Below are positions 19,254 to 53,633 of a stretch of 57,291 nucleotides of DNA, piece by piece. Source of the stretch: Candidatus Uhrbacteria bacterium (lineage in GTDB: Bacteria; Patescibacteriota; Patescibacteriia; JACQRZ01); the NCBI GenBank assembly GCA_016209345.1, contig JACQWH010000029.1:1-57291 (forward strand). The letters are read 5' to 3'. How positions within the stretch are numbered: the first letter of the stretch is position 1; every line of letters begins with the position of its first letter. The notes below the pieces were generated by a model. The model was given only the letters and a program-made list of their open reading frames with translations, had not been told where the DNA came from and did no database searches. The position numbers were made by a program, and so were the translations under genes.

Positions 19254-19931
19254 TCACATGCCGAGTTGATGGCTTCGAACGGCCTCGGTGATTGTCTTTT
19301 TGATTTTTTTCCACGTCACCGCTCTATCAAAAAGTTTTACTCTGTCAATATCGTCATCTTCCTCCGCGTCATTAAAATAGAGTAGCCCCCGAAGAAAAAA
19401 GAAGTGGTTATACATCGGATATTTTTCTAATCCGAAGCGGATCATCTCATCCAGTGAAAAAATGTGTAATAAATAATATATATCAACAAAATCTCGATGA
19501 CGACCACGTTGCGCTATTGCGATGAGCTTCATTGCCGCAATATCCTGCAACGATGCAACCAATACCCCCTGCATAGGTATTGGCGATGCAACAAGCGGAT
19601 ATTCATAATAGAAACAGCTCAAGTGAATATCCGGTTTTGCCAAAAGATCAAAATTATCCTTTATGTCACGCGTTATCTCAATCTGCCAACGTTCTGCCAT
19701 GTACGAATAAAAGAGTTTGCTCAATGTTCCTTTAGCAAAGTGGCGTTGCCGATAAAAATCAAAATCTACTGACGTCCGATGGCCAATCTGTAGTGCGAGC
19801 GCAGTCCCTCCGGCAAGATACATGCCCGTCTTTTTCGTCCACGTAAGCTGTGAAAAAAAACGAGCCCGTGCCGGTGAAAGGACACTGTCAATATAACATG
19901 TTTTCTGTTGTTTTCTGATCATCGTCTTCAT
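19254..19931 (-). CDS. Nucleotidyltransferase AbiEii/AbiGii-family toxin-like protein
   Basis: Has the N-terminal motif LAGGTALALQIGHRTSVDFDFY characteristic of the AbiEii family. 225 aa and AT-rich. Confidence 0.6.
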   Translation of the reverse strand: MKTMIRKQQKTCYIDSVLSPARARFFSQLTWTKKTGMYLAGGTALALQIGHRTSVDFDFYRQRHFAKGTLSKLFYSYMAERWQIEITRDIKDNFDLLAKPDIHLSCFYYEYPLVASPIPMQGVLVASLQDIAAMKLIAIAQRGRHRDFVDIYYLLHIFSLDEMIRFGLEKYPMYNHFFFLRGLLYFNDAEEDDDIDRVKLFDRAVTWKKIKKTITEAVRSHQLGM

Positions 19932-29190: not shown

Positions 29191-31323
29191 CTACTCAAGA
29201 TGCACCGTACCCTGGAATTTTATGATATGATCTTTCAGTTCCGGATACGTTTCAAGAATGCCGACATACTCTTGCGCATACGTTCGTGCTTTTTCAATGA
29301 GCTCGGTATCAAACAATGTTGCGATTTTTAAGCTTGGCATACCGGACTGGCGCAAGCCGCGGACATCACCCTCTCCGCGCAATTCGAGATCTTTCTCGGC
29401 CAACGCAAAGCCGTCATTAGAGGCAACAACCGCTTTGAGGCGCGCAATCTGCTCCCTCTCCTCATTGGTTGGAGCCAAGAAGCAATACGACTGGTGCTCC
29501 GCTCTTCCGACGCGTCCGCGCAATTGATGAAGCTGTGCGAGGCCGAATCGTTCCGCGCCTTCAATAAACATCACGTTGGCATTTGGTACGTCAACGCCAA
29601 CTTCTACGACCGACGTTGTGACAATGATATCGACTTCATGGTCGCGAAATGCGGTCATGATCCTCTCTTTGTCGGCTGGCTTCAGCTTGCCGTGGAGCAT
29701 GGCAACGCGTTCGCATCGAAACGGTCCCTCTGTCAGCCGCTTATATTCCTCGGTCACCGACCGTACGCCAAGCGTGTCTGTAGGATTGATAATGGAACAG
29801 ATAACAAATGCCTGCCGTCCCCTGCCGATCTGTTTTCGGATAAAATCATAGGTCCATCCGCGATAGGATTGAGGGACGATTTTTGTAATGATTTTCTTTC
29901 GCCCTTTGGGCAGGGAGCGGATGGTGGAAATATCAACATCGCCATATACCGTAAGAGCGAGCGAGCGCGGAATGGGCGTCGCGGTCATCGACAACAAGTG
30001 CGGCATCAGTGAGTCGCGATTTTTTTCCCGCAGAACCTTTCTCTGCATGACACCGAAACGATGTTGTTCGTCTATGACTGCGAGCGCAAAATTTTTGAAA
30101 AAAATCTTTTCTTGCAAAAGCGCGTGCGTGCCGATGATGATATCAACACCACCGGTTGCTATCGTAGCTCTTACTTCTTGATTCTTAATTCTTGATTCGT
30201 GATTCTGCGCTGTCAAAAACGCAATGCGAACATCAAAATCCGCAAACAGCTTTTTTAATGTAGTAAAATGTTGCCGCGCCAATACTTCCGTCGGCGCCAT
30301 AAGCGCGCACTGATACCCCGCGCGCACGACGTTAAGCATCACCAGTACGGCGACAATGGTCTTCCCTGCGCCGACATCCCCTTGAAGCAGACGATTCATG
30401 GGCATTGAATGTTCGATATCGCGAAAAATCTCCCACGCCACTTCCTTCTGTTCTCTTGTCAGAGAAAACGGCAAAGATGCGATGAATGTTTTTGTCGCCT
30501 TCGCATCAAAAGGAATGGCGTGCGCAGACAGTTTCGCAAGCGAGTTTTTTACTCTTAAACTTGAGAGCTGATAAAGAAATAATTCTTCGAATTTGAATCG
30601 CCGCTCTGCGGCACGCGCATCCTCCAACCGATCCGGAAAATGAATATCCTCAAGCGCGTCGTATAATGAGGTCATCTGCTCGTTTGCAAGCAGATGGGCG
30701 GGAAGCCATTCACGTACGTCGCCACCACCACACGCATCAAGAGCGTTTCTCATGAGTGTTCGGAATTGTTTCTGGGTGATGCCGGATGGAAGCGAATAAA
30801 CCGGCACCAGGCGAGCGGTATGGAGGAAAATGGGGTCTGGCTCAATTTCGCGAAGAGAATTTGTGCCTGACCCCATTTTCTCATATACAGGACTGACCAT
30901 CTGAAGATCATAGTAACTATCGTTGGTCTTCCCGCTCAGAGAAACATATTCCCCGACATGAAGATTTTTTATCAAAAACGGCTGATTGAACCATATCGCC
31001 TTTATACTCCCGCTCTCGTCAGATATGAGCGCCTCCGTGACGATCATGCGCCTGTTCCGCGATCTTCTATTGCCAATCATATCAATACGCCCATGGATTG
31101 TTGCGCGTGTTCCGATGCTCAGATCGGCAATGGACGCGCTGTATGAAAAATCGTCGAACCGATAGGGAAAATAAAAAATGAGATCCTTGCAGGTCTCAAT
31201 TCCCATCTTCGCTAATTGCTTTTGGAGTACTGTGCCCACTCGAGGCAAGCTCGAAACGGGCATGTCGCTATCCGCCATACGCATTATGAGAGTGGTGAAA
31301 AATAGCTTCCCGGTCAGTTCCAT
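29191..31323 (-). CDS. recG: ATP-dependent DNA helicase RecG
   Basis: Wedge domain plus SF2 helicase motifs (GDVGAGKT, DEQHRFG, SMTATPIPR, the TTSVVEVGVDVPNA region, HQLRGRVGR). The true start is probably a downstream Met (MADSD or MPVSS). Confidence 0.9.
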   Translation of the reverse strand: MELTGKLFFTTLIMRMADSDMPVSSLPRVGTVLQKQLAKMGIETCKDLIFYFPYRFDDFSYSASIADLSIGTRATIHGRIDMIGNRRSRNRRMIVTEALISDESGSIKAIWFNQPFLIKNLHVGEYVSLSGKTNDSYYDLQMVSPVYEKMGSGTNSLREIEPDPIFLHTARLVPVYSLPSGITQKQFRTLMRNALDACGGGDVREWLPAHLLANEQMTSLYDALEDIHFPDRLEDARAAERRFKFEELFLYQLSSLRVKNSLAKLSAHAIPFDAKATKTFIASLPFSLTREQKEVAWEIFRDIEHSMPMNRLLQGDVGAGKTIVAVLVMLNVVRAGYQCALMAPTEVLARQHFTTLKKLFADFDVRIAFLTAQNHESRIKNQEVRATIATGGVDIIIGTHALLQEKIFFKNFALAVIDEQHRFGVMQRKVLREKNRDSLMPHLLSMTATPIPRSLALTVYGDVDISTIRSLPKGRKKIITKIVPQSYRGWTYDFIRKQIGRGRQAFVICSIINPTDTLGVRSVTEEYKRLTEGPFRCERVAMLHGKLKPADKERIMTAFRDHEVDIIVTTSVVEVGVDVPNANVMFIEGAERFGLAQLHQLRGRVGRAEHQSYCFLAPTNEEREQIARLKAVVASNDGFALAEKDLELRGEGDVRGLRQSGMPSLKIATLFDTELIEKARTYAQEYVGILETYPELKDHIIKFQGTVHLE
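30826..30880 (-). repeat. In-frame palindromic insertion element P3 (55 nt)
   Basis: The reverse complement is identical at 55/55 positions to P1. It sits in the same codon phase and encodes the same peptide, (K)MGSGTNSLREIEPDPIF, in the RecG N-terminal region. Confidence 0.8.
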
Positions 31324-34626: not shown

Positions 34627-35787
34627 GTGTGCGCCGCCGCCCTGTTTGGCTTTCCCGCGCGCCGCCTTTCCTGTATCGCCATTGCGGGCACCAAAGGAAA
34701 AACAAGTACGGCATATTTCCTCCATGGCATACTCCAGCATGCCGGTCACCCGTGCGCGCTCTTTACAACCTCGGGCGGAAAAATAAAAAATGATGCGTTT
34801 CTCAACACCTGGAAGATGACAACGCCAGATCCTTTTTCCTTGCAACGATTCCTCGCCTCAGCGGTTCGCGCGGGCTGCTCACACGCCGTCATAGAGGTGT
34901 CGTCCCACGCGCTCAAGCAGCATCGAACCGTCCTCATTCCGTTTGCTGTTGTCCTTATCACAAACCTTGCGCCCGACCATCTGGAATATCACGCATCCGC
35001 GGATGAGTATATTCGCGTTCATGAAAAAATTCTGTCAAAACATACGCGCGCGATTCTCATCAATGCCGATGATGCGCACAGCGCGTTCTTTGCAAAAGAC
35101 CCGCGAACAATCCCTTTTTCACAATCAACTATTCATGCCGACTGCGCCAAGCCCCCTCCCCAGTGGTGGGCAGCGCTCCAGAAGCCAAATCTTGCCGCGG
35201 CATGCGCGGCGGCGCGTGCGCTTGGAAAAACAAATGAAGACATCTGTTCCGCGCTTTTGACCCTTACCGCACCGCCCGGACGATTTGAAGAAATCATCAA
35301 GGGGCAGGACTTTCGTGTTATTGTCGACTATGCGCACTCGCCCGAATCGCTCATGTTTTTTTTCAAGGCGGTCCGCCCGCTTATTTCACAAAAAATAATT
35401 GTCGTATTCGGGGCTTGCGGCGATAGAGACCCTGTCCAGCGACCACGTATGGGTGCGGTGCTCCAACGCTACGCAGACATGATTATTCTCACCAGCGACG
35501 ACCCCTATTCTGAACAGCCGGCGGATATTGCGCGCCAAGTACAGACAGGCATTACCGACGAATCAAAAGAACTTCTCACTATTCTCGACCGAAAAGAAGC
35601 GATACGAAAAGCTCTGGAAATCGCGCGGAAAAACGACTGCGCTTGCATCCTGGGCAAGGGGGCTGAACAATTTCAAGTGTTCAAAAACAAAAAAATCCCA
35701 TGGGATGACCGTGTAATTACAAAAGTTTTACTTGCCGAGCAATGTGGAAAAAAAACCATGCTTAATCTTACTAATCCGAAGAATTAA
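34627..35787 (+). CDS. murE: Mur ligase, MurE-like (UDP-MurNAc-tripeptide synthetase)
   Basis: P-loop AGTKGKTST, DHLEYH, PGRFE, VDYAHSP, FGACGDRD and a SDDPYSEQP tail. The reading frame is open upstream to 34513 and looks coding (IKKLLKTLIPPLL...), so the listed GTG start is probably too far downstream. Confidence 0.8.
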   Translation: MCAAALFGFPARRLSCIAIAGTKGKTSTAYFLHGILQHAGHPCALFTTSGGKIKNDAFLNTWKMTTPDPFSLQRFLASAVRAGCSHAVIEVSSHALKQHRTVLIPFAVVLITNLAPDHLEYHASADEYIRVHEKILSKHTRAILINADDAHSAFFAKDPRTIPFSQSTIHADCAKPPPQWWAALQKPNLAAACAAARALGKTNEDICSALLTLTAPPGRFEEIIKGQDFRVIVDYAHSPESLMFFFKAVRPLISQKIIVVFGACGDRDPVQRPRMGAVLQRYADMIILTSDDPYSEQPADIARQVQTGITDESKELLTILDRKEAIRKALEIARKNDCACILGKGAEQFQVFKNKKIPWDDRVITKVLLAEQCGKKTMLNLTNPKN

Positions 35788-35844
35788 GAGGTAAGAATTA
35801 TGAATGAACGAAATCAAATCAATGGGTCCCTTAATTCTTAATTT

Positions 35845-36018
35845 CTTTGAATTACGAAACGCCACTTTTGTCATTCCGACCCCGTTCGGCTCACGGTGCT
35901 GTTCGCTCAGGGCAAGCTAGTAAGAAGTGGAGGAATCTATGCAGTTGAAAGGAAAATGTAGATCCCTCGACTTCGCTCGGGATGACAACACGGGCGTTAT
36001 TGCAGTTTCGAAATTCAA
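35845..36018. mobile_element. Type-1 MITE-like element (third copy)
   Basis: CTTTGAATTACGAAAC...GGGATGACAACACGGGCGTTATTGCAGTTTCGAAATTCAA. Its right end matches window bases 1..40. Confidence 0.6.
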
Positions 36019-37415: not shown

Positions 37416-37450
37416 TTAGGGGTTAGGGGTTAGGGGTTAGGGGTTAGGGG
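37416..37450. repeat. (TTAGGGG)x5 tandem heptamer
   Basis: Five perfect units. The sense strand (CCCCTAA)n supplies the last codons and the stop of the VirB4-like gene (..QTPNP-stop). Confidence 0.9.
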
Positions 37451-41393: not shown

Positions 41394-42113
41394 CTAGGAT
41401 AGGGGTACTTCTTCGTCTCCTTCTACCTGAAGATCACTCAGGGGCGCCATACGCTGATTGGATGATGTTTCAGGGTTATAGGTAGTATAGTAAAGTTCTA
41501 TGAGGGACTGCGTATCAAGGCGGACGGTGTTGAGCCCCATGCCGACAAGACCGCCGGCAACGTTGCCGATGCGCTGGTCGAGCATATGCTTACGTTTAAG
41601 AAATTGTTCGTTTTTCAAACGCAGCTCGCCTGCGGCAAAAAAGACCTCATAAAGTTGTTTGAAAAATCCTCGCTTCATATCCGTAGCCGGATCGTATGGA
41701 ATCACGGCATAAAACTTTTTATCCATAATATCACCAAGCTGAACAAGTTCGGCGACGAATTGCCGATAGTCGGCCATCTGCATTTTAAGCAGATCGTTTG
41801 TCTGCTGCGCTTCGAGTTGCTCAAGACGCTTAATATATGTTGTGATGTCGTACTTGCGCGACTGGACCAGCACCTGGAGTGGGTAGTCGATGGTGTTGAG
41901 AAACTGCATATAGGACTGGATCGTCGCGTTCTGTTCGTCTTCCGACTTCAGAAAAAAATTGATGGAAGACACCAGCAGCACGCCGCGCAGGGTGCCGTCT
42001 TTGAGAATGACGGTATCGTTTTTTATCTCGGCAATTTCAAGATGTTTCTGCGTTGATGGCGTACCGCGATTCGCTTTCGGATTGGGCTCTGTTGTTTGTT
42101 TTTTCTTGGGCAT
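41394..42113 (-). CDS. Protein resembling the N-terminal domain of Gram-positive-type VirB4 (possible split-off VirB4 N-domain)
   Basis: HLEIAEIKNDTVILKDGTLRGVLLVSSINFFLKSEDEQNATIQSYMQFLNTIDYPLQVLVQSRK resembles the first domain of PrgJ/TcpF-type VirB4 proteins (from memory). 239 aa plus 625 aa of spliced VirB4 gives a typical VirB4 length. Confidence 0.5.
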   Translation of the reverse strand: MPKKKQTTEPNPKANRGTPSTQKHLEIAEIKNDTVILKDGTLRGVLLVSSINFFLKSEDEQNATIQSYMQFLNTIDYPLQVLVQSRKYDITTYIKRLEQLEAQQTNDLLKMQMADYRQFVAELVQLGDIMDKKFYAVIPYDPATDMKRGFFKQLYEVFFAAGELRLKNEQFLKRKHMLDQRIGNVAGGLVGMGLNTVRLDTQSLIELYYTTYNPETSSNQRMAPLSDLQVEGDEEVPLS

Positions 42114-42117
42114 AGAT

Positions 42118-42158
42118 CAGGTGTCAGGTTGCAGGTGTCAGGTTGCAGGTGTCAGGTT
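42118..42158. repeat. (CAGGTGTCAGGTTG) x ~2.9 tandem 14-mer
   Basis: Direct tandem copies. The sense strand encodes the C-terminal KPDTCNLTPAT-stop of the four-helix-bundle gene. Confidence 0.85.
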
Positions 42159-42516
42159 TATTACCGAGTTTTGTTATGAGGGTATTCAAAATTTTCATAA
42201 CCTCTATGAGTATTGTGTCAACATCATTATACTGGAGGTTCACACCAAAAGGCAATTTCTTTACGACGGCTATCTGTGTTTGCAGTTCAGCGCCCGATCC
42301 ATATGAAATATAAAGAAAGTGCCTATAATCCTTCCGCGTACCCCTCATACTTCCCTCAGCTATGTTTGACGGAATAGAAACTGCCGCTCGTTTCATTTGA
42401 GATGCTAGTCCGAAAACCTCTTCCCGGGGAAAATGACTCGTAAGTTCGTAGATTGCCAGAACCAGCTCAATACCCTTCTTCCATACTATCAAATCCTGAA
42501 ATGACTGTACTTTCAT
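42124..42516 (-). CDS. Four-helix-bundle protein (23S rRNA intervening-sequence protein family), copy 1
   Basis: FQDLIVWKKGIELVLAIYELTSHFPREEVFGLASQMKRAAVSIPSNIAEG...GSGAELQTQ matches the signature of this family. Confidence 0.8.
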   Translation of the reverse strand: MKVQSFQDLIVWKKGIELVLAIYELTSHFPREEVFGLASQMKRAAVSIPSNIAEGSMRGTRKDYRHFLYISYGSGAELQTQIAVVKKLPFGVNLQYNDVDTILIEVMKILNTLITKLGNKPDTCNLTPAT

Positions 42517-42529
42517 AAATTAATTTTTC

Positions 42530-42655
42530 TGATCACTGAAACCTGATCACTGAAACCTGATCACTGAAACCTGATCACTGAAACCTGATCACTGAAACCT
42601 GATCACTGAAACCTGATCACTGAAACCTGATCACTGAAACCTGATCACTGAAACC
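42530..42655. repeat. (TGATCACTGAAACC)x9 perfect tandem 14-mer
   Basis: 126 nt made of nine identical units. Each unit contains the palindrome TGATCA (with GATC) and TGA triplets on both strands. Confidence 0.95.
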
Positions 42656-43110
42656 TAAAACAACTCCGTCTCCTTCTCCTTTGCTTCACCCATATATGCC
42701 CCTCCGGTATCGACAATAAGCGCGAGATCGGCGAGCCGATGCCCGCTCACGCGCGGCGGTAAGGGCGGCGGGGTTTCCTTCAAGGCCTTTTCCTCCTTCG
42801 TCTCTTTTGCCGTGTGAATGACGCGGCGCACATCCTTTCTCCATACGCGCAGTGTCGGCCGGCTTGCCGTGCGCAGCGTATTGAGGAGAAAAAAATGGAA
42901 GGGCTGTCCGTTGATCCGCACAAACCCAAGCACGCCCGCGCATCCCCCGACAAGAATGGCGACAAAAATGAAGGCGGTCAGGTCTGTTGTTTTGTACGCA
43001 ACGAACAACAGCGCGCAGGCAACGAGGATGATCACAAACTGCCGAACGGTAATCGGCCCGAGTATGCGGTCTTCATTTTCAATAAATTGCGGAACGGTTA
43101 TTTGGTCCAT
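42655..43110 (-). CDS. PrgI-family (VirB3-like) T4SS membrane protein
   Basis: The start was moved to MDQITVPQFIENEDRILGPITVRQF, followed by two TM helices, the pattern typical of PrgI-family proteins. Confidence 0.65.
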   Translation of the reverse strand: MDQITVPQFIENEDRILGPITVRQFVIILVACALLFVAYKTTDLTAFIFVAILVGGCAGVLGFVRINGQPFHFFLLNTLRTASRPTLRVWRKDVRRVIHTAKETKEEKALKETPPPLPPRVSGHRLADLALIVDTGGAYMGEAKEKETELF

Positions 43111-43135
43111 GTCAACAAGAATTAAGAAACAAGAA

Positions 43136-43531
43136 TTAAGAATTACGAACAATCGATTTTGTGCCCTTAATAAGCCCGTTTGTTATTTTACTTACTGTTA
43201 TAGTATGCTGTGCGAGCGCTTGAAATATCTCCTTTTCAATATATCCGATATCACGCGCAATGAGTAACTGATTCTAAACTTCTGTAAGTGATCCGAGTGC
43301 TATCGAGTAGAACTGTGCCTTCTCCTTATATGACCCCCTGCCAAAACCCTCAGCAATGTTTGATGTTAATGAAACGGCAGCCCTACGAAGTTGATTTGTT
43401 AACCCAAACTGTTCTTCCTTTGGAAAGGATTGGGTTATCTTGTATATTTTCAGAACAAGGGTGTGGCCTTCTTGCCATGCTTTCAAATCTGTAAATGACC
43501 GGATCGTATGCTTGCTTAATTCTTGATTCAT
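43136..43531 (-). pseudogene. Four-helix-bundle protein, copy 2, with one in-frame TAG
   Basis: An 85-aa ORF, then TAG (43274..43276), then 45 more in-frame codons (NQLLIARDIGYIEKE...IVRNS-stop). The TAG aligns with Gln (CAG) of copy 1 (GAELQTQ against LTEV*NQ). Confidence 0.7.
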
Positions 43532-43555
43532 GATTCTTGATTCCTTTCTGCAAAT

Positions 43556-43564
43556 AGTATATCA
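43556..43564 (-). promoter_or_regulatory. Candidate extended -10 box TGATATACT upstream of four-helix-bundle copy 2
   Basis: On the minus strand, TGATATACT lies 24 nt upstream of the ATG at 43531. Confidence 0.35.
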
Positions 43565-43586
43565 TCGTTTTCCCGTACTCACAAAG

Positions 43587-46049
43587 CTAGAACCGTAGCT
43601 TTTCATTCAACTCCAACAGCGCGTCAAACTCTTCCGCCGTGAGATATTCTTTTCCGGCTGTTTTTCTTTCTTCAACCAGCTTGTTCATATCCACGCCGAT
43701 ATTGATTTGCCCAATCTCAAGATAGAGCGCGTAGACATCGCTTTCCTTCCATGCCTTTATCGCTTCTGCCTTTTTCGTCAGCGATTGTTTTTCAAGCGCC
43801 TGAATTTTTTCATAGATACGCTTTACCGACTCTTTCGGGTCTTGGGAAAGCCGGCGAAAATCCTTAATGGTAAGCGCGCGAATCTCATCAATCACGCCAA
43901 CGAGCCGCGGCGCTGCTTTCACATCCGCAACTTTCGTTTTCGGGGCGCCCGCCGTCGGCGTTGCGCGAACCGTCACGGGAATGGGAATAGGTTTCAGGTT
44001 ATAGGTTTCAGGTTTCAGGGGGGGTGCAGTACTAGGGGCTAGGGTAGAGGGTTTAGGGGTTAGTTGGGGACCAACAGGGGTTGCGGGTGGGGTCTGTACC
44101 TCCCCTTGATTCGTGATTCTTGATTCTTGATTCTGTCCCGTGATTCGTGATTCTTGATTCTGCCCCTGCCCTCCTCTTGCCTCCCCTTGATTCGTAATTC
44201 GTGGTTCTTGATTCGTGATTCCTGTTTCCTGTTTCTCCGTCTTTTCCAGCGATAATTTTTCGTTTTTCATTTTTCGTTTTGCGCTTGACTGCACCAGCAT
44301 CGGCACGCCATCCACTTCTTTAATGACCATCACTGGCTCAGGTTTCAGGTTATAGGTTTGAGGTTTCAGGGGTGGCTCAGGAACAGGTTGCAGGTCATAG
44401 GTTTCAGGTTTCAGGGATGGTGTGGCTGACCCCATTTCTGCCATTGATTCGTGATTCGTGATTCTTGATTCCTGCTTCTGTGCCCCCCCTTGATTCGTGA
44501 TTCTTGATTCCTGATTCTGCCCCGTGATTCGTGATTCCTGCTTCTGTGCCCCCCCTTGATTCGTGATTCGTGATTCTTGATTCTGCCCCGTGATTCTTGA
44601 TTCTTGATTCTGCCCCGTGATTCCTGAATCGTAAAGCTGTTCTAACCCCTTCCCCGCCACAATCGCCTGCGCTGCCACGTTCGCCTCTTTCAAAAGTTTC
44701 TCGGCATCCTCAGGAGACAATCCGGCGCCGCCATCGGCAAGCGCCGCTTTCAGCCGTTCGCTCGTATCAATACTGTTGCGAATATTGCGCACGCGCGATG
44801 AAAGAATCGGCTTTACCCGGCTAGTGACATCGTCGGAAAGTTTTACCGCAGCCGCCTCAAGAATATGTGTGATAACCCTGTCATAATCAACCACCAAGGC
44901 AGGTTGTAGGTTGTAGGTTGTAGGTTGTAGTAAGGGCTCGGGGTGTACCGACGCCACGGCAGCAACGTCATTGCGGGGAAGCGCAGCGACCGCAGGGAGA
45001 GATCCCTCTTTCTCTTGATTCGTAATTCGTGATTCTTGATTCTGTCCCGTGATTCTTGATTCTTGATTCTGTCCCGTGATTCTTGATTCTTGATTCTGTC
45101 CCGTGATTCTTGATTCTTGATTCTGTTCCTCCCCCGGCACCCCCGGCAGCTCTCGCGCGGTTTTCGCCTCAAGTTCCGCCAAGTGATATGGGATAACCAT
45201 CCAGTGTTCCGGCGATGTCTTCTGAAAACTTTCCGGAAAATTTTTCAACACCGTAAATGTTTCAAACAGCCGCCGCAATGCCTCTTTGTCCTTTTCCGAT
45301 AGCTTCTTTGCGTTCGCGTTATCTGTCATGTACTGCGCGATTTTAATGCTTGACGCAGTCCCGCCGGAAAATCCCAAAAGATCCTGAATCCAATTGCCAA
45401 CGGTCGGCGGCTGCCCGTCTTTTTCCCCAACGCGCATCGTCTCTTTGCCAATATGCTCCTCGTTTGCGTAGAGCGATTTAAGAAGCGTATCAACGAATCC
45501 CTCGATGTTTGAAATGAGAAAAATGATGGTGTTGTTCAGTGACACTTTGTACGGATCGTCGGGGGCATAAAAATGACAGGTAAGATTTTTCTCAAAAAGC
45601 GCCGCCATGTCTACCGCTCCCTTTTCTCTATTGGCATCAAGATCTTCAATCTCTGCCGCTTTTTCGCGCAACGCCTCATTTATCGTTTTCAACAACAATG
45701 GCATGGTCTTGCTCTCTTCAAGCGCTTTTTCCGGATCACCGTATTTTTTTTGAAAATACTCAATGTGATTCCCAAAAAAATCAATAAATGGCAGAACGAG
45801 ATTAATAAAAAATGTCCGCTCGAGTGCTGTTGCTTGCTCCTCCGAAATGCCCAAACGCTGCAAAAATATTCCCCTAAGATCTTCAGGCCGTATATTTTTT
45901 TTGAACAATTCCTCAATGATATCATTGAGAGCATCCTGCTCCTTTGTAAAAAGATTGAGCTGCGACTTTACCGAATCTATCCAATAATAAAACTCCGGCG
46001 ACAGTAAAATCGATCGAATATATTGTGGTATGTTTTCAAGATATGACAT
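43587..46049 (-). CDS. 820-aa protein with globular ends and long low-complexity repeat linkers
   Basis: Long ORF in operon orientation. The N-terminal ~290 aa and C-terminal ~120 aa look globular. The middle is made of GQNQESRIT, PETYNLKP and P/T/A-rich repeats. Confidence 0.6.
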   Translation of the reverse strand: MSYLENIPQYIRSILLSPEFYYWIDSVKSQLNLFTKEQDALNDIIEELFKKNIRPEDLRGIFLQRLGISEEQATALERTFFINLVLPFIDFFGNHIEYFQKKYGDPEKALEESKTMPLLLKTINEALREKAAEIEDLDANREKGAVDMAALFEKNLTCHFYAPDDPYKVSLNNTIIFLISNIEGFVDTLLKSLYANEEHIGKETMRVGEKDGQPPTVGNWIQDLLGFSGGTASSIKIAQYMTDNANAKKLSEKDKEALRRLFETFTVLKNFPESFQKTSPEHWMVIPYHLAELEAKTARELPGVPGEEQNQESRITGQNQESRITGQNQESRITGQNQESRITNQEKEGSLPAVAALPRNDVAAVASVHPEPLLQPTTYNLQPALVVDYDRVITHILEAAAVKLSDDVTSRVKPILSSRVRNIRNSIDTSERLKAALADGGAGLSPEDAEKLLKEANVAAQAIVAGKGLEQLYDSGITGQNQESRITGQNQESRITNQGGAQKQESRITGQNQESRITNQGGAQKQESRITNHESMAEMGSATPSLKPETYDLQPVPEPPLKPQTYNLKPEPVMVIKEVDGVPMLVQSSAKRKMKNEKLSLEKTEKQETGITNQEPRITNQGEARGGQGQNQESRITGQNQESRITNQGEVQTPPATPVGPQLTPKPSTLAPSTAPPLKPETYNLKPIPIPVTVRATPTAGAPKTKVADVKAAPRLVGVIDEIRALTIKDFRRLSQDPKESVKRIYEKIQALEKQSLTKKAEAIKAWKESDVYALYLEIGQINIGVDMNKLVEERKTAGKEYLTAEEFDALLELNEKLRF
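45029..45129. repeat. 27-nt tandem repeat (GTGATTCTTGATTCTTGATTCTGTCCC) x3 plus a shortened unit
   Basis: Units at 45049..45075 and 45076..45102 are identical, and 45103..45129 has one mismatch. The sense strand encodes (TGQNQESRI)n. Confidence 0.9.
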
Positions 46050-52799: not shown

Positions 52800-52818
52800 A
52801 ATGGGGTCAGTCCCCATT
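52800..52818. repeat. 19-nt palindrome AATGGGGTCAGTCCCCATT resembling fused termini of the P1/P3 element
   Basis: The left half AATGGGGTCAG is identical to the P1 left end, and the right half CCCCATTT resembles the P1 right end. It overlaps the HepT-like stop codon. Confidence 0.5.
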
Positions 52819-53232
52819 TCGTTCAACCATGCGTTCTATGACGGCAACGTAATCTTGTATGTCTTCCTTTTCGCGTCCTATCATCCTCAGCATGAGTTCT
52901 CTATCAACTGTCTCATATCGATGTACGAGCCGATTGCGCAACCCAACAATTGGGGCGAGGCGCTCGGCTAATTTTTCTGACACTATATTGTTGTCCGCAA
53001 GTACCCGAAATGTTGATTGAAAATCATCGGGAACCGAGAATGCTAAGGCACTGATAAGATGATTATTCATATCAATGACCTCATCGACGATGAGCTGAAT
53101 CACACGTTCAACGGCATAGTAAAAAAAGATTTTTCGAGACATACCATCCGCCATTGCCAAAAGCTCAGTCAAATCATTATAATACCCTCTCACTCGTTCA
53201 ATGCGTCTTTGGAGAAAAATTTTATCGATCAT
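52807..53232 (-). CDS. hepT: HepT-like (DUF86/HEPN) RNase toxin
   Basis: R-x4-H HEPN motif in GLRNRLVHRY. 141 aa. 4-nt overlap with the upstream nucleotidyltransferase gene. Confidence 0.75.
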   Translation of the reverse strand: MIDKIFLQRRIERVRGYYNDLTELLAMADGMSRKIFFYYAVERVIQLIVDEVIDMNNHLISALAFSVPDDFQSTFRVLADNNIVSEKLAERLAPIVGLRNRLVHRYETVDRELMLRMIGREKEDIQDYVAVIERMVERNGD

Positions 53233-53633
53233 ATATTCTTGTCAAAAAAGCGCCTGACTGCGGCATCAGTCATCGCAAAAATAGGCGCTGCCTCTGAAAA
53301 CCTTTGTTTGGCATAGACAAAAAAATCCGTATACGCTGTCGGCTCTTCTTGATAGAGGACGTGATTATTCTTAATGACCTCCATGAGAAGAAGTGGTGGC
53401 GCTTTATACAAATTCGTAAAATCCGCCGTCATGCCAAATATATTGATAAACTCCGTCGCGAGGTATACTTCGTCGGTAAATGAAAGCGCCTTTTGAGGGA
53501 GGACACCGATATCAATATCGCTTTCACGATGCGTCCGTCCATGTACCTGTGAACCAAAAAGCAGCACGAGCTTCAGCCCATACTTCTCGGCTACTTCCGC
53601 GATCTTCTTTTCTTGTTTTTCTGTTATTTCCAT
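53229..53633 (-). CDS. mntA: MntA-like minimal nucleotidyltransferase antitoxin
   Basis: Has LFGSQVHGRTHRESDIDIGV, the GS-x(n)-DxD motif of minimal nucleotidyltransferases. Confidence 0.75.
   Translation of the reverse strand: MEITEKQEKKIAEVAEKYGLKLVLLFGSQVHGRTHRESDIDIGVLPQKALSFTDEVYLATEFINIFGMTADFTNLYKAPPLLLMEVIKNNHVLYQEEPTAYTDFFVYAKQRFSEAAPIFAMTDAAVRRFFDKNI

Follow-up and report, generated by a model that had tools for sequence, protein, structure and literature searches.

How do genes of a family first met in ribosomal RNA come to lie between the protein-coding genes of an operon? The PF05635 family of four-helix-bundle (4HB) proteins was originally found inside ribosomal-RNA intervening sequences (IVS). 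The stretch of DNA analysed here (the window, 57,291 nucleotides) comes from the genome of an ultra-small groundwater member of the Patescibacteria that is Uhrbacteria-like by its nearest named relatives. On its minus strand is an operon resembling those of type IV secretion systems (T4SS), and this operon hosts two 4HB genes, termed copy 1 and copy 2. We conclude that both genes are probably compact inserts (~0.43-0.54 kb), i.e. IVS-type cassettes placed in an mRNA operon. An initial annotation of the window had described them as IVS-like selfish modules. The family to which they belong, a design like that of a Coxiella element, and the presence of both filled and empty sites in relatives all agree with that description, and the coordinates and sequences it gave were found to be correct.

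Anatomy of two candidate cassettes

The genes of the operon are ordered 1102-aa protein, 820-aa protein, cassette 2, PrgI-like, cassette 1, TraC-like (VirB4 N-domain), an intein-bearing VirB4 and further genes. The two cassettes and their parts are as follows.

42118 to 42656, minus strand: cassette 1, whole unit (5′ arm, 12-nt spacer, open reading frame (ORF) and 3′ arm), an exact fill of the PrgI|TraC-like junction
42529 to 42656, minus strand: 5′ arm of cassette 1, sense (GGTTTCAGTGATCA)x9.1, two heptamers per unit, more G than C (TRF, 100% matches)
42124 to 42516, minus strand: ORF of cassette 1 (copy 1), an intact 4HB protein of 130 aa (PF05635, TIGR02436)
42118 to 42158, minus strand: 3′ arm of cassette 1, sense (CAACCTGACACCTG)x2.9, more C than G, a perfect array
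43114 to 43546, minus strand: cassette 2, whole unit, flanked by a conserved promoter-like box on one side and the ATG (43110) of the PrgI-like gene on the other
43515 to 43546, minus strand: 5′ arm of cassette 2, sense GGAATCAAGAATCATGAATCAAGAATTAAG, AAGAATY heptamers, more G than C; contains the ATG of the ORF (43529-43531)
43136 to 43531, minus strand: ORF of cassette 2 (copy 2), 131 codons with one in-frame TAG at 43274-43276
43114 to 43152, minus strand: 3′ arm of cassette 2, sense CGTAATTCTTAATTCTTGTTTCTTAATTCTTG, the complement of AAGAATY, more C than G; the ORF ends within it (..VRNS, TAA stop)

Both proteins score above the family cutoffs. Compared with PF05635 (cutoff 33.8 bits), copy 1 gives E = 1.6e-34 and 118.7 bits, and copy 2 gives E = 5.6e-39 and 133.1 bits. 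The corresponding values for TIGR02436 (cutoff 24) are E = 1.3e-32 and 112.2 bits for copy 1, and 124.9 bits for copy 2. The assignment of two 23S-rRNA-IVS-type genes flanking the PrgI-like gene is therefore upheld. The two copies are 42% identical, and are the sole members of the family in the window. Both have the RxxxSxxxNxxE motif (copy 1, KRAAVSIPSNIAEG; copy 2, RRAAVSLTSNIAEG), which is given as a conserved feature of the family in the passages devoted to it by Zhang 2013 (PMC3936711) and Lin 2006. Copy 1 matches the solved structure of XCC0516 in sequence (PDB 2gsc, E = 1.3e-20). This entry and a second sequence match (2rld, E = 1.8e-4) were both deposited with five chains. The in-frame TAG codon of copy 2, which had escaped the initial annotation, aligns with a glutamine in the ortholog from an operon relative (L005, see below), and copy 2 is a fresh pseudogene with a newly acquired nonsense codon.

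Every arm of both cassettes is a tandem array of 7-nt units, another feature that had been missed. In cassette 1 the heptamers are GGTTTCA/GTGATCA upstream, forming nine perfect 14-mers, and CAACCTG/ACACCTG downstream. The start or stop codons of both ORFs lie within or beside the arms. The 5′ arm of cassette 1 begins within the TAG stop codon of the PrgI-like gene (42655-42657), the 3′ arm encloses the last 12 codons and TGA stop of copy 1, and the ATG of the TraC-like gene (42113) follows 4 nt past its end. Cassette 1 lacks its own promoter.

The arms of each cassette are complementary. In cassette 2, CTTAATTCTTGATTC (43515-43529) pairs with GAAACAAGAATTAAG (43126-43140) at 14 of 15 positions, exactly as had been reported, and this pairing can be lengthened to 27 nt at 85% (43119-43145 / 43517-43543) and 42 nt at 74%. 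The ungapped inverted-repeat score of 16 was reached by none of 500 dinucleotide shuffles, and the RNA duplex energy is −24.8 kcal/mol (z = −3.0). The arms of cassette 1 are 74% complementary over 43 nt, in several registers. Their duplex energy of −53.8 compares with −30.3 ± 4.2 in shuffles (z = −5.6), and none of 300 shuffles reached it. The flanks are paired in the minimum-energy folds of both whole cassette RNAs, with 44 and 50 long-range pairs, so that a stem is predicted to be able to enclose each unit, as had been proposed for copy 2. The arms are specific to their own cassette; pairs crossing the two score at background.

The S23p IVS of Coxiella burnetii, located in helix 45 of the 23S rRNA, has a 28-bp inverted-repeat stem, GACAGAT heptamers that vary between strains, and mapped RNase III cuts (Warrier et al. 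2016, PMC4990558). An ORF-bearing 23S rRNA IVS is also described for Leptospira (Ralph & McClelland 1993, as cited in PMC4990558). The window cassettes share with 23S IVS the PF05635 protein, an ORF of ~120-130 codons enclosed by a terminal inverted-repeat stem (with strong arms for copy 2 and imperfect ones for copy 1), orientation with the host transcript, an ORF subject to decay and a sporadic occurrence in related genomes. A further likeness, to the Coxiella element, is the run of tandem heptamers that precedes the ORF on its 5′ side and varies in number between strains (PMC4990558). The window cassettes differ from 23S IVS in location, since they sit between protein-coding operon genes instead of in 23S helix 9, 25 or 45, and in having heptamer arrays as both arms. 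Given that family, arms and the Coxiella 23S IVS design agree, we read the window units as IVS-type cassettes riding an mRNA operon. Excision by RNase III has been demonstrated for the rRNA IVS.

Filled and empty sites in operon relatives

Homologs of either the TraC-like protein or copy 1 were used to fetch seven relatives of the operon. The host genes on either side of cassette 1 are as follows.

42655 to 43110, minus strand: PrgI-like host gene, between the cassettes (PF12666, E = 2.4e-10; its start agrees with that in relatives)
41394 to 42113, minus strand: TraC-like (VirB4 N-domain) host gene, downstream of cassette 1 (PF26593 in all relatives)

The state of the two sites in each relative is given below, where the percentage is the identity of the TraC-like protein to that of the window.

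L004 (sister, 88%): cassette 1 site empty (stop-T-ATG); cassette 2 site empty (130-nt spacer); 0 arrays
L007 (79%): cassette 1 site empty; cassette 2 site empty; 0 arrays
L171 (75%): cassette 1 site filled, ortholog 76% aa; contig starts in PrgI, so that the cassette 2 site lies outside it
L005 (74%): cassette 1 site with a solo array; cassette 2 site filled, ortholog 79% aa; 7 arrays
L168 (63%): cassette 1 site empty; cassette 2 site empty; 1 array
L169 (61%): cassette 1 site empty; cassette 2 site empty; 0 arrays
L170 (65%): cassette 1 site empty; cassette 2 site empty; 0 arrays

Comparison with cassette-lacking relatives thus gave empty sites in L004, L007, L168, L169 and L170. In a tree of the TraC-like proteins the window and L004 are sisters with 100/99 support. 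The junctions in L004 are clean, and the cassettes are absent without a scar in this sister and in other relatives. Where a cassette is shared, it has diverged about as far as its neighbour. Copy 1 is 76% identical to its ortholog in L171, compared with 75% for the neighbour gene. Copy 2 is 79% identical to that of L005, without gaps and with the same arm family and junction, compared with 74% for the neighbour gene. Judged by these values, both cassettes have been resident long enough to diverge about as much as the neighbour gene. For copy 2 and its L005 ortholog pN = 0.13 and pS = 0.76 (saturated), which indicates that copy 2 is under purifying selection. The distribution is patchy, and therefore several scar-free losses, or transfers between relatives, are needed.

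The arrays themselves have changed in number. The L171 ortholog of cassette 1 has merely ~2 degenerate 5′ units, and the ninefold array of the window is therefore a recent expansion. From such comparisons the cassette arrays evidently expand and contract. The Logan contigs found for the locus stop within ~40-100 nt of the ninefold array.

Copy 2 had been credited with a TGATATACT box of its own. The box exists, as part of this site upstream of cassette 2:

43556 to 43584 (read 43584-43556), minus strand: extended −10 promoter-like site, TGATATACT box, TTGTGA-17-TG-TATACT

However, the cassette-free L004 has TGGTATAAT at the equivalent place past the upstream stop codon, and L005 has TGGTATACT. 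Since there are equivalents in both, the box probably predates the insert and is probably not the cassette's own. It is probably an operon-internal promoter of the host, older than the cassette 2 insert.

The TraC-like gene (41394-42113) stands alone in all seven relatives fetched, so that the 'split VirB4' is ancestral to the lineage and does not reflect a local disruption. An Rfam scan of the window returned two tRNAs only, and no rRNA. The same window has an AbiEii-type toxin gene at 19254-19931 and a HepT/MNT (HEPN-nucleotidyltransferase) toxin-antitoxin pair at 52807-53633.

No population variants lacking the cassettes were seen in the contigs of the groundwater runs. Arm 'joints' in these contigs were considered as excision products and rejected, because 35 other letters lie between the arms, i.e. 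the intervening sequence is replaced rather than cut out. One contig of high depth has two AAGAATT-type arms merely 35 nt apart. Summed word depth over the AAGAATT-type arms in these runs is ~18,000 (43120-43210) and ~670 (43484-43574), compared with ~4-15 in the surrounding genes. From this depth and the contig with the 35-nt spacing, the AAGAATT arm family is very abundant in the community, the ORF-less form included.

Heptamer arrays across the 4HB family

Two samples of the wider family, ~155 genes in all, were compiled. The first comprises 79 genes from genomes of Saccharibacteria, Parcubacteria, Bacteroidales, Omnitrophota, Chloroflexota, Acidobacteriota, ANME-1 archaea and others, and the second comprises 76 metagenomic relatives of copy 2. 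In the genome sample period-7 arrays are present in 36 of the 5′ flanks and 41 of the 3′ flanks, with 0-8 for other periods between 3 and 12. The metagenome sample replicates this, with 48 and 53 respectively. Period-7 arrays thus flank about half to two-thirds of the sampled 4HB genes. In the genome sample their density is 2.89/kb within 170 nt of a 4HB gene and 0.15/kb elsewhere in the loci, a 19-fold difference. An inverted-repeat score of at least 10 was obtained for 73% of own flank pairs in the genome sample, compared with 10.6% of permuted pairs. Inverted flanks, whose absence at other loci would have counted against the initial annotation, are therefore the rule in the two protein subfamilies sampled.

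The sequence of the heptamer varies by lineage (TTAGGGG, GGTTTAG, GAGTTAC, CAGTGGT, GGCATTA and others), with the two arms remaining complementary. Polarity is maintained family-wide, the 5′ arrays having more G than C (22:6) and the 3′ arrays more C than G (25:7), and both window cassettes conform. The proteins of two loci, L054 and L078, are 94% identical and lie in unrelated contexts; the DNA that they share runs from outer array edge to outer array edge. With neighbours called by ORF heuristics, cassettes between co-directional genes are co-oriented in 106 cases and antisense in 2. The arms start a median of 2 nt past the upstream stop codon and end 7-11 nt ahead of the downstream start. 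No rRNA motifs were found in ~160 sampled cassette loci, and no phage relatives in IMG/VR (two pattern sets) or INPHARED, the phage searches being of limited sensitivity.

The 4HB genes of annotated cyanobacterial plasmids bear the same kind of arms, some of them inside cas operons. In its treatment of such genes, Zhang et al. 2013 reported 23S_rRNA_IVP genes inside cas operons and read them as a functional association with CRISPR-Cas (PMC3936711). Like the window genes, these are wedged between unrelated operon genes (e.g. cmr3|cmr2) and have the RxxxSxxxNxxE motif. The part of that paper on the cas-operon genes does not mention repeat arms, yet the 4HB genes of Anabaena sp. 90 (cas6|cas4) and Picosynechococcus (cmr2|cmr3) do bear heptamer arms. 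Armed 4HB genes lie antisense between co-directional genes in a Calothrix plasmid (L172, toxin-secretion), where the copy has its own TATAAT-like box, and in a plasmid of Nostoc edaphicum (L174, RNR alpha/beta).

Arrays also occur without an intact 4HB gene. Two of those in the window are as follows.

35779 to 35858, plus strand: ORF-less mini-element of the cassette 2 arm family, AAGAATTAAGAGGTAAGAATTATGAAT ... CTTAATTCTTAATTTCTT, hairpin fold −10.2 kcal/mol
37416 to 37450, minus strand: solo array of heptamers, (CCCCTAA)x5 in the sense strand, between VirB4 and the 204-aa gene, where it supplies the VirB4 stop codon

The 5′ arm of the mini-element starts on the stop codon of a Mur-ligase gene. 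Homology of its loop to a 4HB gene is not shown, the alignment blocks being too short to trust. L005 has a (CCCTAAA)-type array at the matching VirB4|204-aa junction. At 7708-7866 of L005, an Uhrbacteria relative, at the TraC-like|VirB4 junction, there is an ORF-less inverted heptamer-array element whose loop encodes ..LINGLISSIENQK*, resembling a 4HB C-terminus; given this remnant, it looks like a decayed cassette. The occurrence of ORF-less hairpins and solo arrays beside cassettes, one with a 4HB remnant, suggests decay.

Some arrays are read in frame. A GATTCTT-type array lies at 30175-30206 within recG (29191-31323, minus strand). Like the solo (CCCCTAA)x5 array, it belongs to the heptamer families of the window. 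In the 820-aa protein the linkers QNQESRITG and KPETYNLKP (window 43975-45130) are in-frame heptamer arrays of the cassette-arm families, and homologs of this protein have in-frame arrays in L005 (5064-5093) and L168 (4649-4683). Homologs in relatives with one array or none are 643-774 aa in length (L004, L007, L168-L170), and those of the window and L005 are 820-911 aa, so that arrays seem to lengthen the protein. A Logan contig of run X2 has an extra 14-nt unit (ATAGGTTTCAGGTT) in the in-frame array at 43986-44014 of the ORF 43587-46049 (minus strand). The additional unit would truncate the 820-aa protein at residue 689, with loss of a conserved C-terminal domain, and could reflect strain or phase-like variation, or else an error of assembly.

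The short tandemly repeated repetitive (STRR) sequences of cyanobacteria are intergenic heptamer tandem repeats. The published accounts of such repeats, as far as their descriptions of the arrays go, include intergenic GGGNATC in Xanthomonas and Nostoc (PMC4692102) and TAACTGA in Beggiatoaceae, cyanobacteria and Bacteroidetes, for which the account names no associated gene family (PMC4679880). By those descriptions the window arrays resemble them in having 7-nt units in 2-26 copies, variable in number and occasionally in frame in ORFs, and in lying between co-directional ORFs near stop and start codons; they differ in forming inverted pairs around a 4HB gene. There is also some likeness to miniature inverted-repeat transposable elements (MITEs), Rickettsia palindromic elements and REP-like inserts, in the inverted termini, the ORF-less derivatives and the insertion at junctions or occasionally in frame. 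Unlike MITEs, the cassettes have termini that are lineage-varying heptamer arrays, with no transposase in the window ORFs scanned and no target-site duplication. Literature searched by the family name together with heptamer repeats yielded no description of the arms outside rRNA. In the portions of that literature bearing on the subject, the design is described for the rRNA IVS only, and heptamer arrays only without the gene.

RNA stem or DNA hairpin

A G-rich heptamer array, a PF05635 ORF and a complementary C-rich heptamer array form a unit that fills precisely the gap between two operon genes, oriented with the operon. In the mechanism that we envisage, the cassette would be transcribed by read-through within the polycistronic mRNA. 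Its arms could then pair as a long RNA stem that loops the ORF out, and this would bring the stop codon of the gene upstream back to the start codon of the gene downstream. Such a stem would resemble the RNase III substrate of the homologous 23S rRNA IVS. By analogy, the cassettes might be cleaved or excised from the operon transcript, a suggestion that we make tentatively and with somewhat more doubt than belief. Clean loss of a cassette would most simply occur by hairpin-stimulated deletion. The 106:2 co-orientation points to a dependence on host transcription, from which cleavage need not follow.

A number of observations weigh against this account. The complementarity of cassette 1 is weaker than the initial annotation had implied. 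The bracketing arrays are perfect (x9.1 and x2.9), yet the ungapped score of 10 was reached by 46 of 500 shuffles and is marginal, despite the clear result by energy, and the stem consists of 10-bp helices chained together with 4-nt internal loops between them. Mismatches in the arms have no excess of G:U over A:C (63:70 and 60:82, i.e. 123:152 overall), and the sense and antisense duplex energies are equal. Because neither test has a sense-strand signal, the complementarity is strand-symmetric, as for a DNA-level feature. A stem that holds start and stop codons would face competition from ribosomes translating the ORF. Pfam scans of 37 large window ORFs plus five examined earlier revealed no transposase, integrase, reverse transcriptase or RNase III, a motif scan of the window found no RNase III signature, and no target-site duplication is visible at the filled and empty junctions. 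A run search with the window locus returned four groundwater DNA runs only and no RNA run, and a search with an ANME-1 cassette locus also gave no RNA run. For a Chloroflexota cassette locus, metatranscriptome contigs cover no more than ~35-48 nt, at the upstream edge of the stretch searched. Co-orientation is not universal, since of four cyanobacterial plasmid cassettes two lie antisense to the genes beside them. Finally, the genes sampled from the family are those closest to the two copies, and the criteria applied to them are loose.

Several of these points would be expected if the arms acted solely on DNA, as terminal inverted repeats or single-stranded DNA hairpins for insertion, gene conversion and hairpin-stimulated deletion, with the RNA stem an unselected by-product of a transcript that is not processed. 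The strand symmetry (G:U to A:C of 123:152, equal energies) fits this well, as do the ending of homology between near-identical copies at the outer array edges and the clean loss of cassettes in sister genomes. One array family spread over genome and community, with a depth of 18,000, could also provide portable homology. Yet the scanned window ORFs include no recombinase or transposase, there is no target-site duplication, the 106:2 co-orientation with host transcription points to a dependence on the transcript, and the stem of the homologous Coxiella element is demonstrably a substrate for RNase III (PMC4990558). We therefore consider a role confined to DNA rather unlikely. Action of the arms on DNA is in any case compatible with the RNA model rather than exclusive of it.

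Two further explanations would deny that gene and arms form a selfish unit. The heptamer arrays could be independent genome-wide microsatellites of the STRR kind, arising at any junction and lying around 4HB genes by coincidence. There are indeed arrays without a 4HB gene, at 37416-37450, in recG and in the ORF of the 820-aa protein, and in the sampled loci 41 lie over 190 nt away from the 4HB genes; moreover the published heptamer repeats of cyanobacteria, Xanthomonas and Beggiatoaceae name no gene family in the accounts of them noted above. Coincidence is nevertheless very improbable in view of the 19-fold density adjoining 4HB genes, the enrichment of period 7 alone, and the far better pairing of own than of permuted flanks. 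In addition, each window cassette has matched arms of its own family with cross-pairs at background, arrays travel with the ORF in L054 and L078, and there are essentially no arrays in cassette-free operon relatives. Alternatively, the 4HB proteins could be host components of the T4SS-like or competence apparatus, or cofactors of the Avd type that serve diversity-generating retroelements (DGRs). A divergence about equal to that of the neighbour gene and the purifying selection on copy 2 are what a host component would display, and there is weak similarity to the Avd models PF22296 and NF033474, bAvd (PDB 4DWL) having a homologous four-helix-bundle fold. However, the sister genome lacks the genes, as do most relatives that have the operon, one copy is a pseudogene, and the family is found in unrelated operons across many phyla. 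Scores are far below the Avd cutoffs, those for NF033474 being 16.9 and 22 bits compared with a cutoff of 80, and the ORFs scanned in the 57-kb window include no reverse transcriptase (RVT) family; template/variable repeat pairs were not searched for. We have therefore rejected a DGR/Avd identity, and a host role of either kind is highly unlikely. We know of no Avd genes that carry heptamer arms.

Returning to the IVS-type cassettes, a broader and more speculative proposal, which may or may not prove correct and on which we place limited confidence, is that PF05635 proteins and inverted heptamer arrays constitute one cross-domain system that colonises transcribed junctions, whether rRNA helices or operon gene boundaries. 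The protein, as an oligomer, would bind specifically to the array of its own unit, in the form of RNA or single-stranded DNA, and so help the unit to spread or persist. In the operon studied here, folding of the arms would re-establish the stop-start coupling between the host genes that the insert has parted, and the unexplained excess of heptamer tandem repeats in prokaryotic genomes would be the footprint of the system. If so, that footprint would include the solo arrays, the ORF-less hairpins and the in-frame arrays that build disordered linkers.

For annotation, it would be a mistake to take 4HB genes for functional partners of their host operons, whether T4SS or CRISPR-Cas, and the arrays break assemblies at the locus. 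The finding joins two separate puzzles: what the PF05635 family, a relative of the DGR cofactor Avd, does, and why bacteria have an excess of heptamer repeats, as has long been noted. How rRNA IVS arise and move, and what their conserved ORF is for, are questions that date from the early 1990s. Should the rRNA copies prove to be just the rare members of a much larger class resident in ordinary operons, the IVS question becomes genetically testable. Such tests could make use of sites both filled and empty, of arms matched to their proteins, and of carriers that can be cultivated among the cyanobacteria and Bacteroidota.

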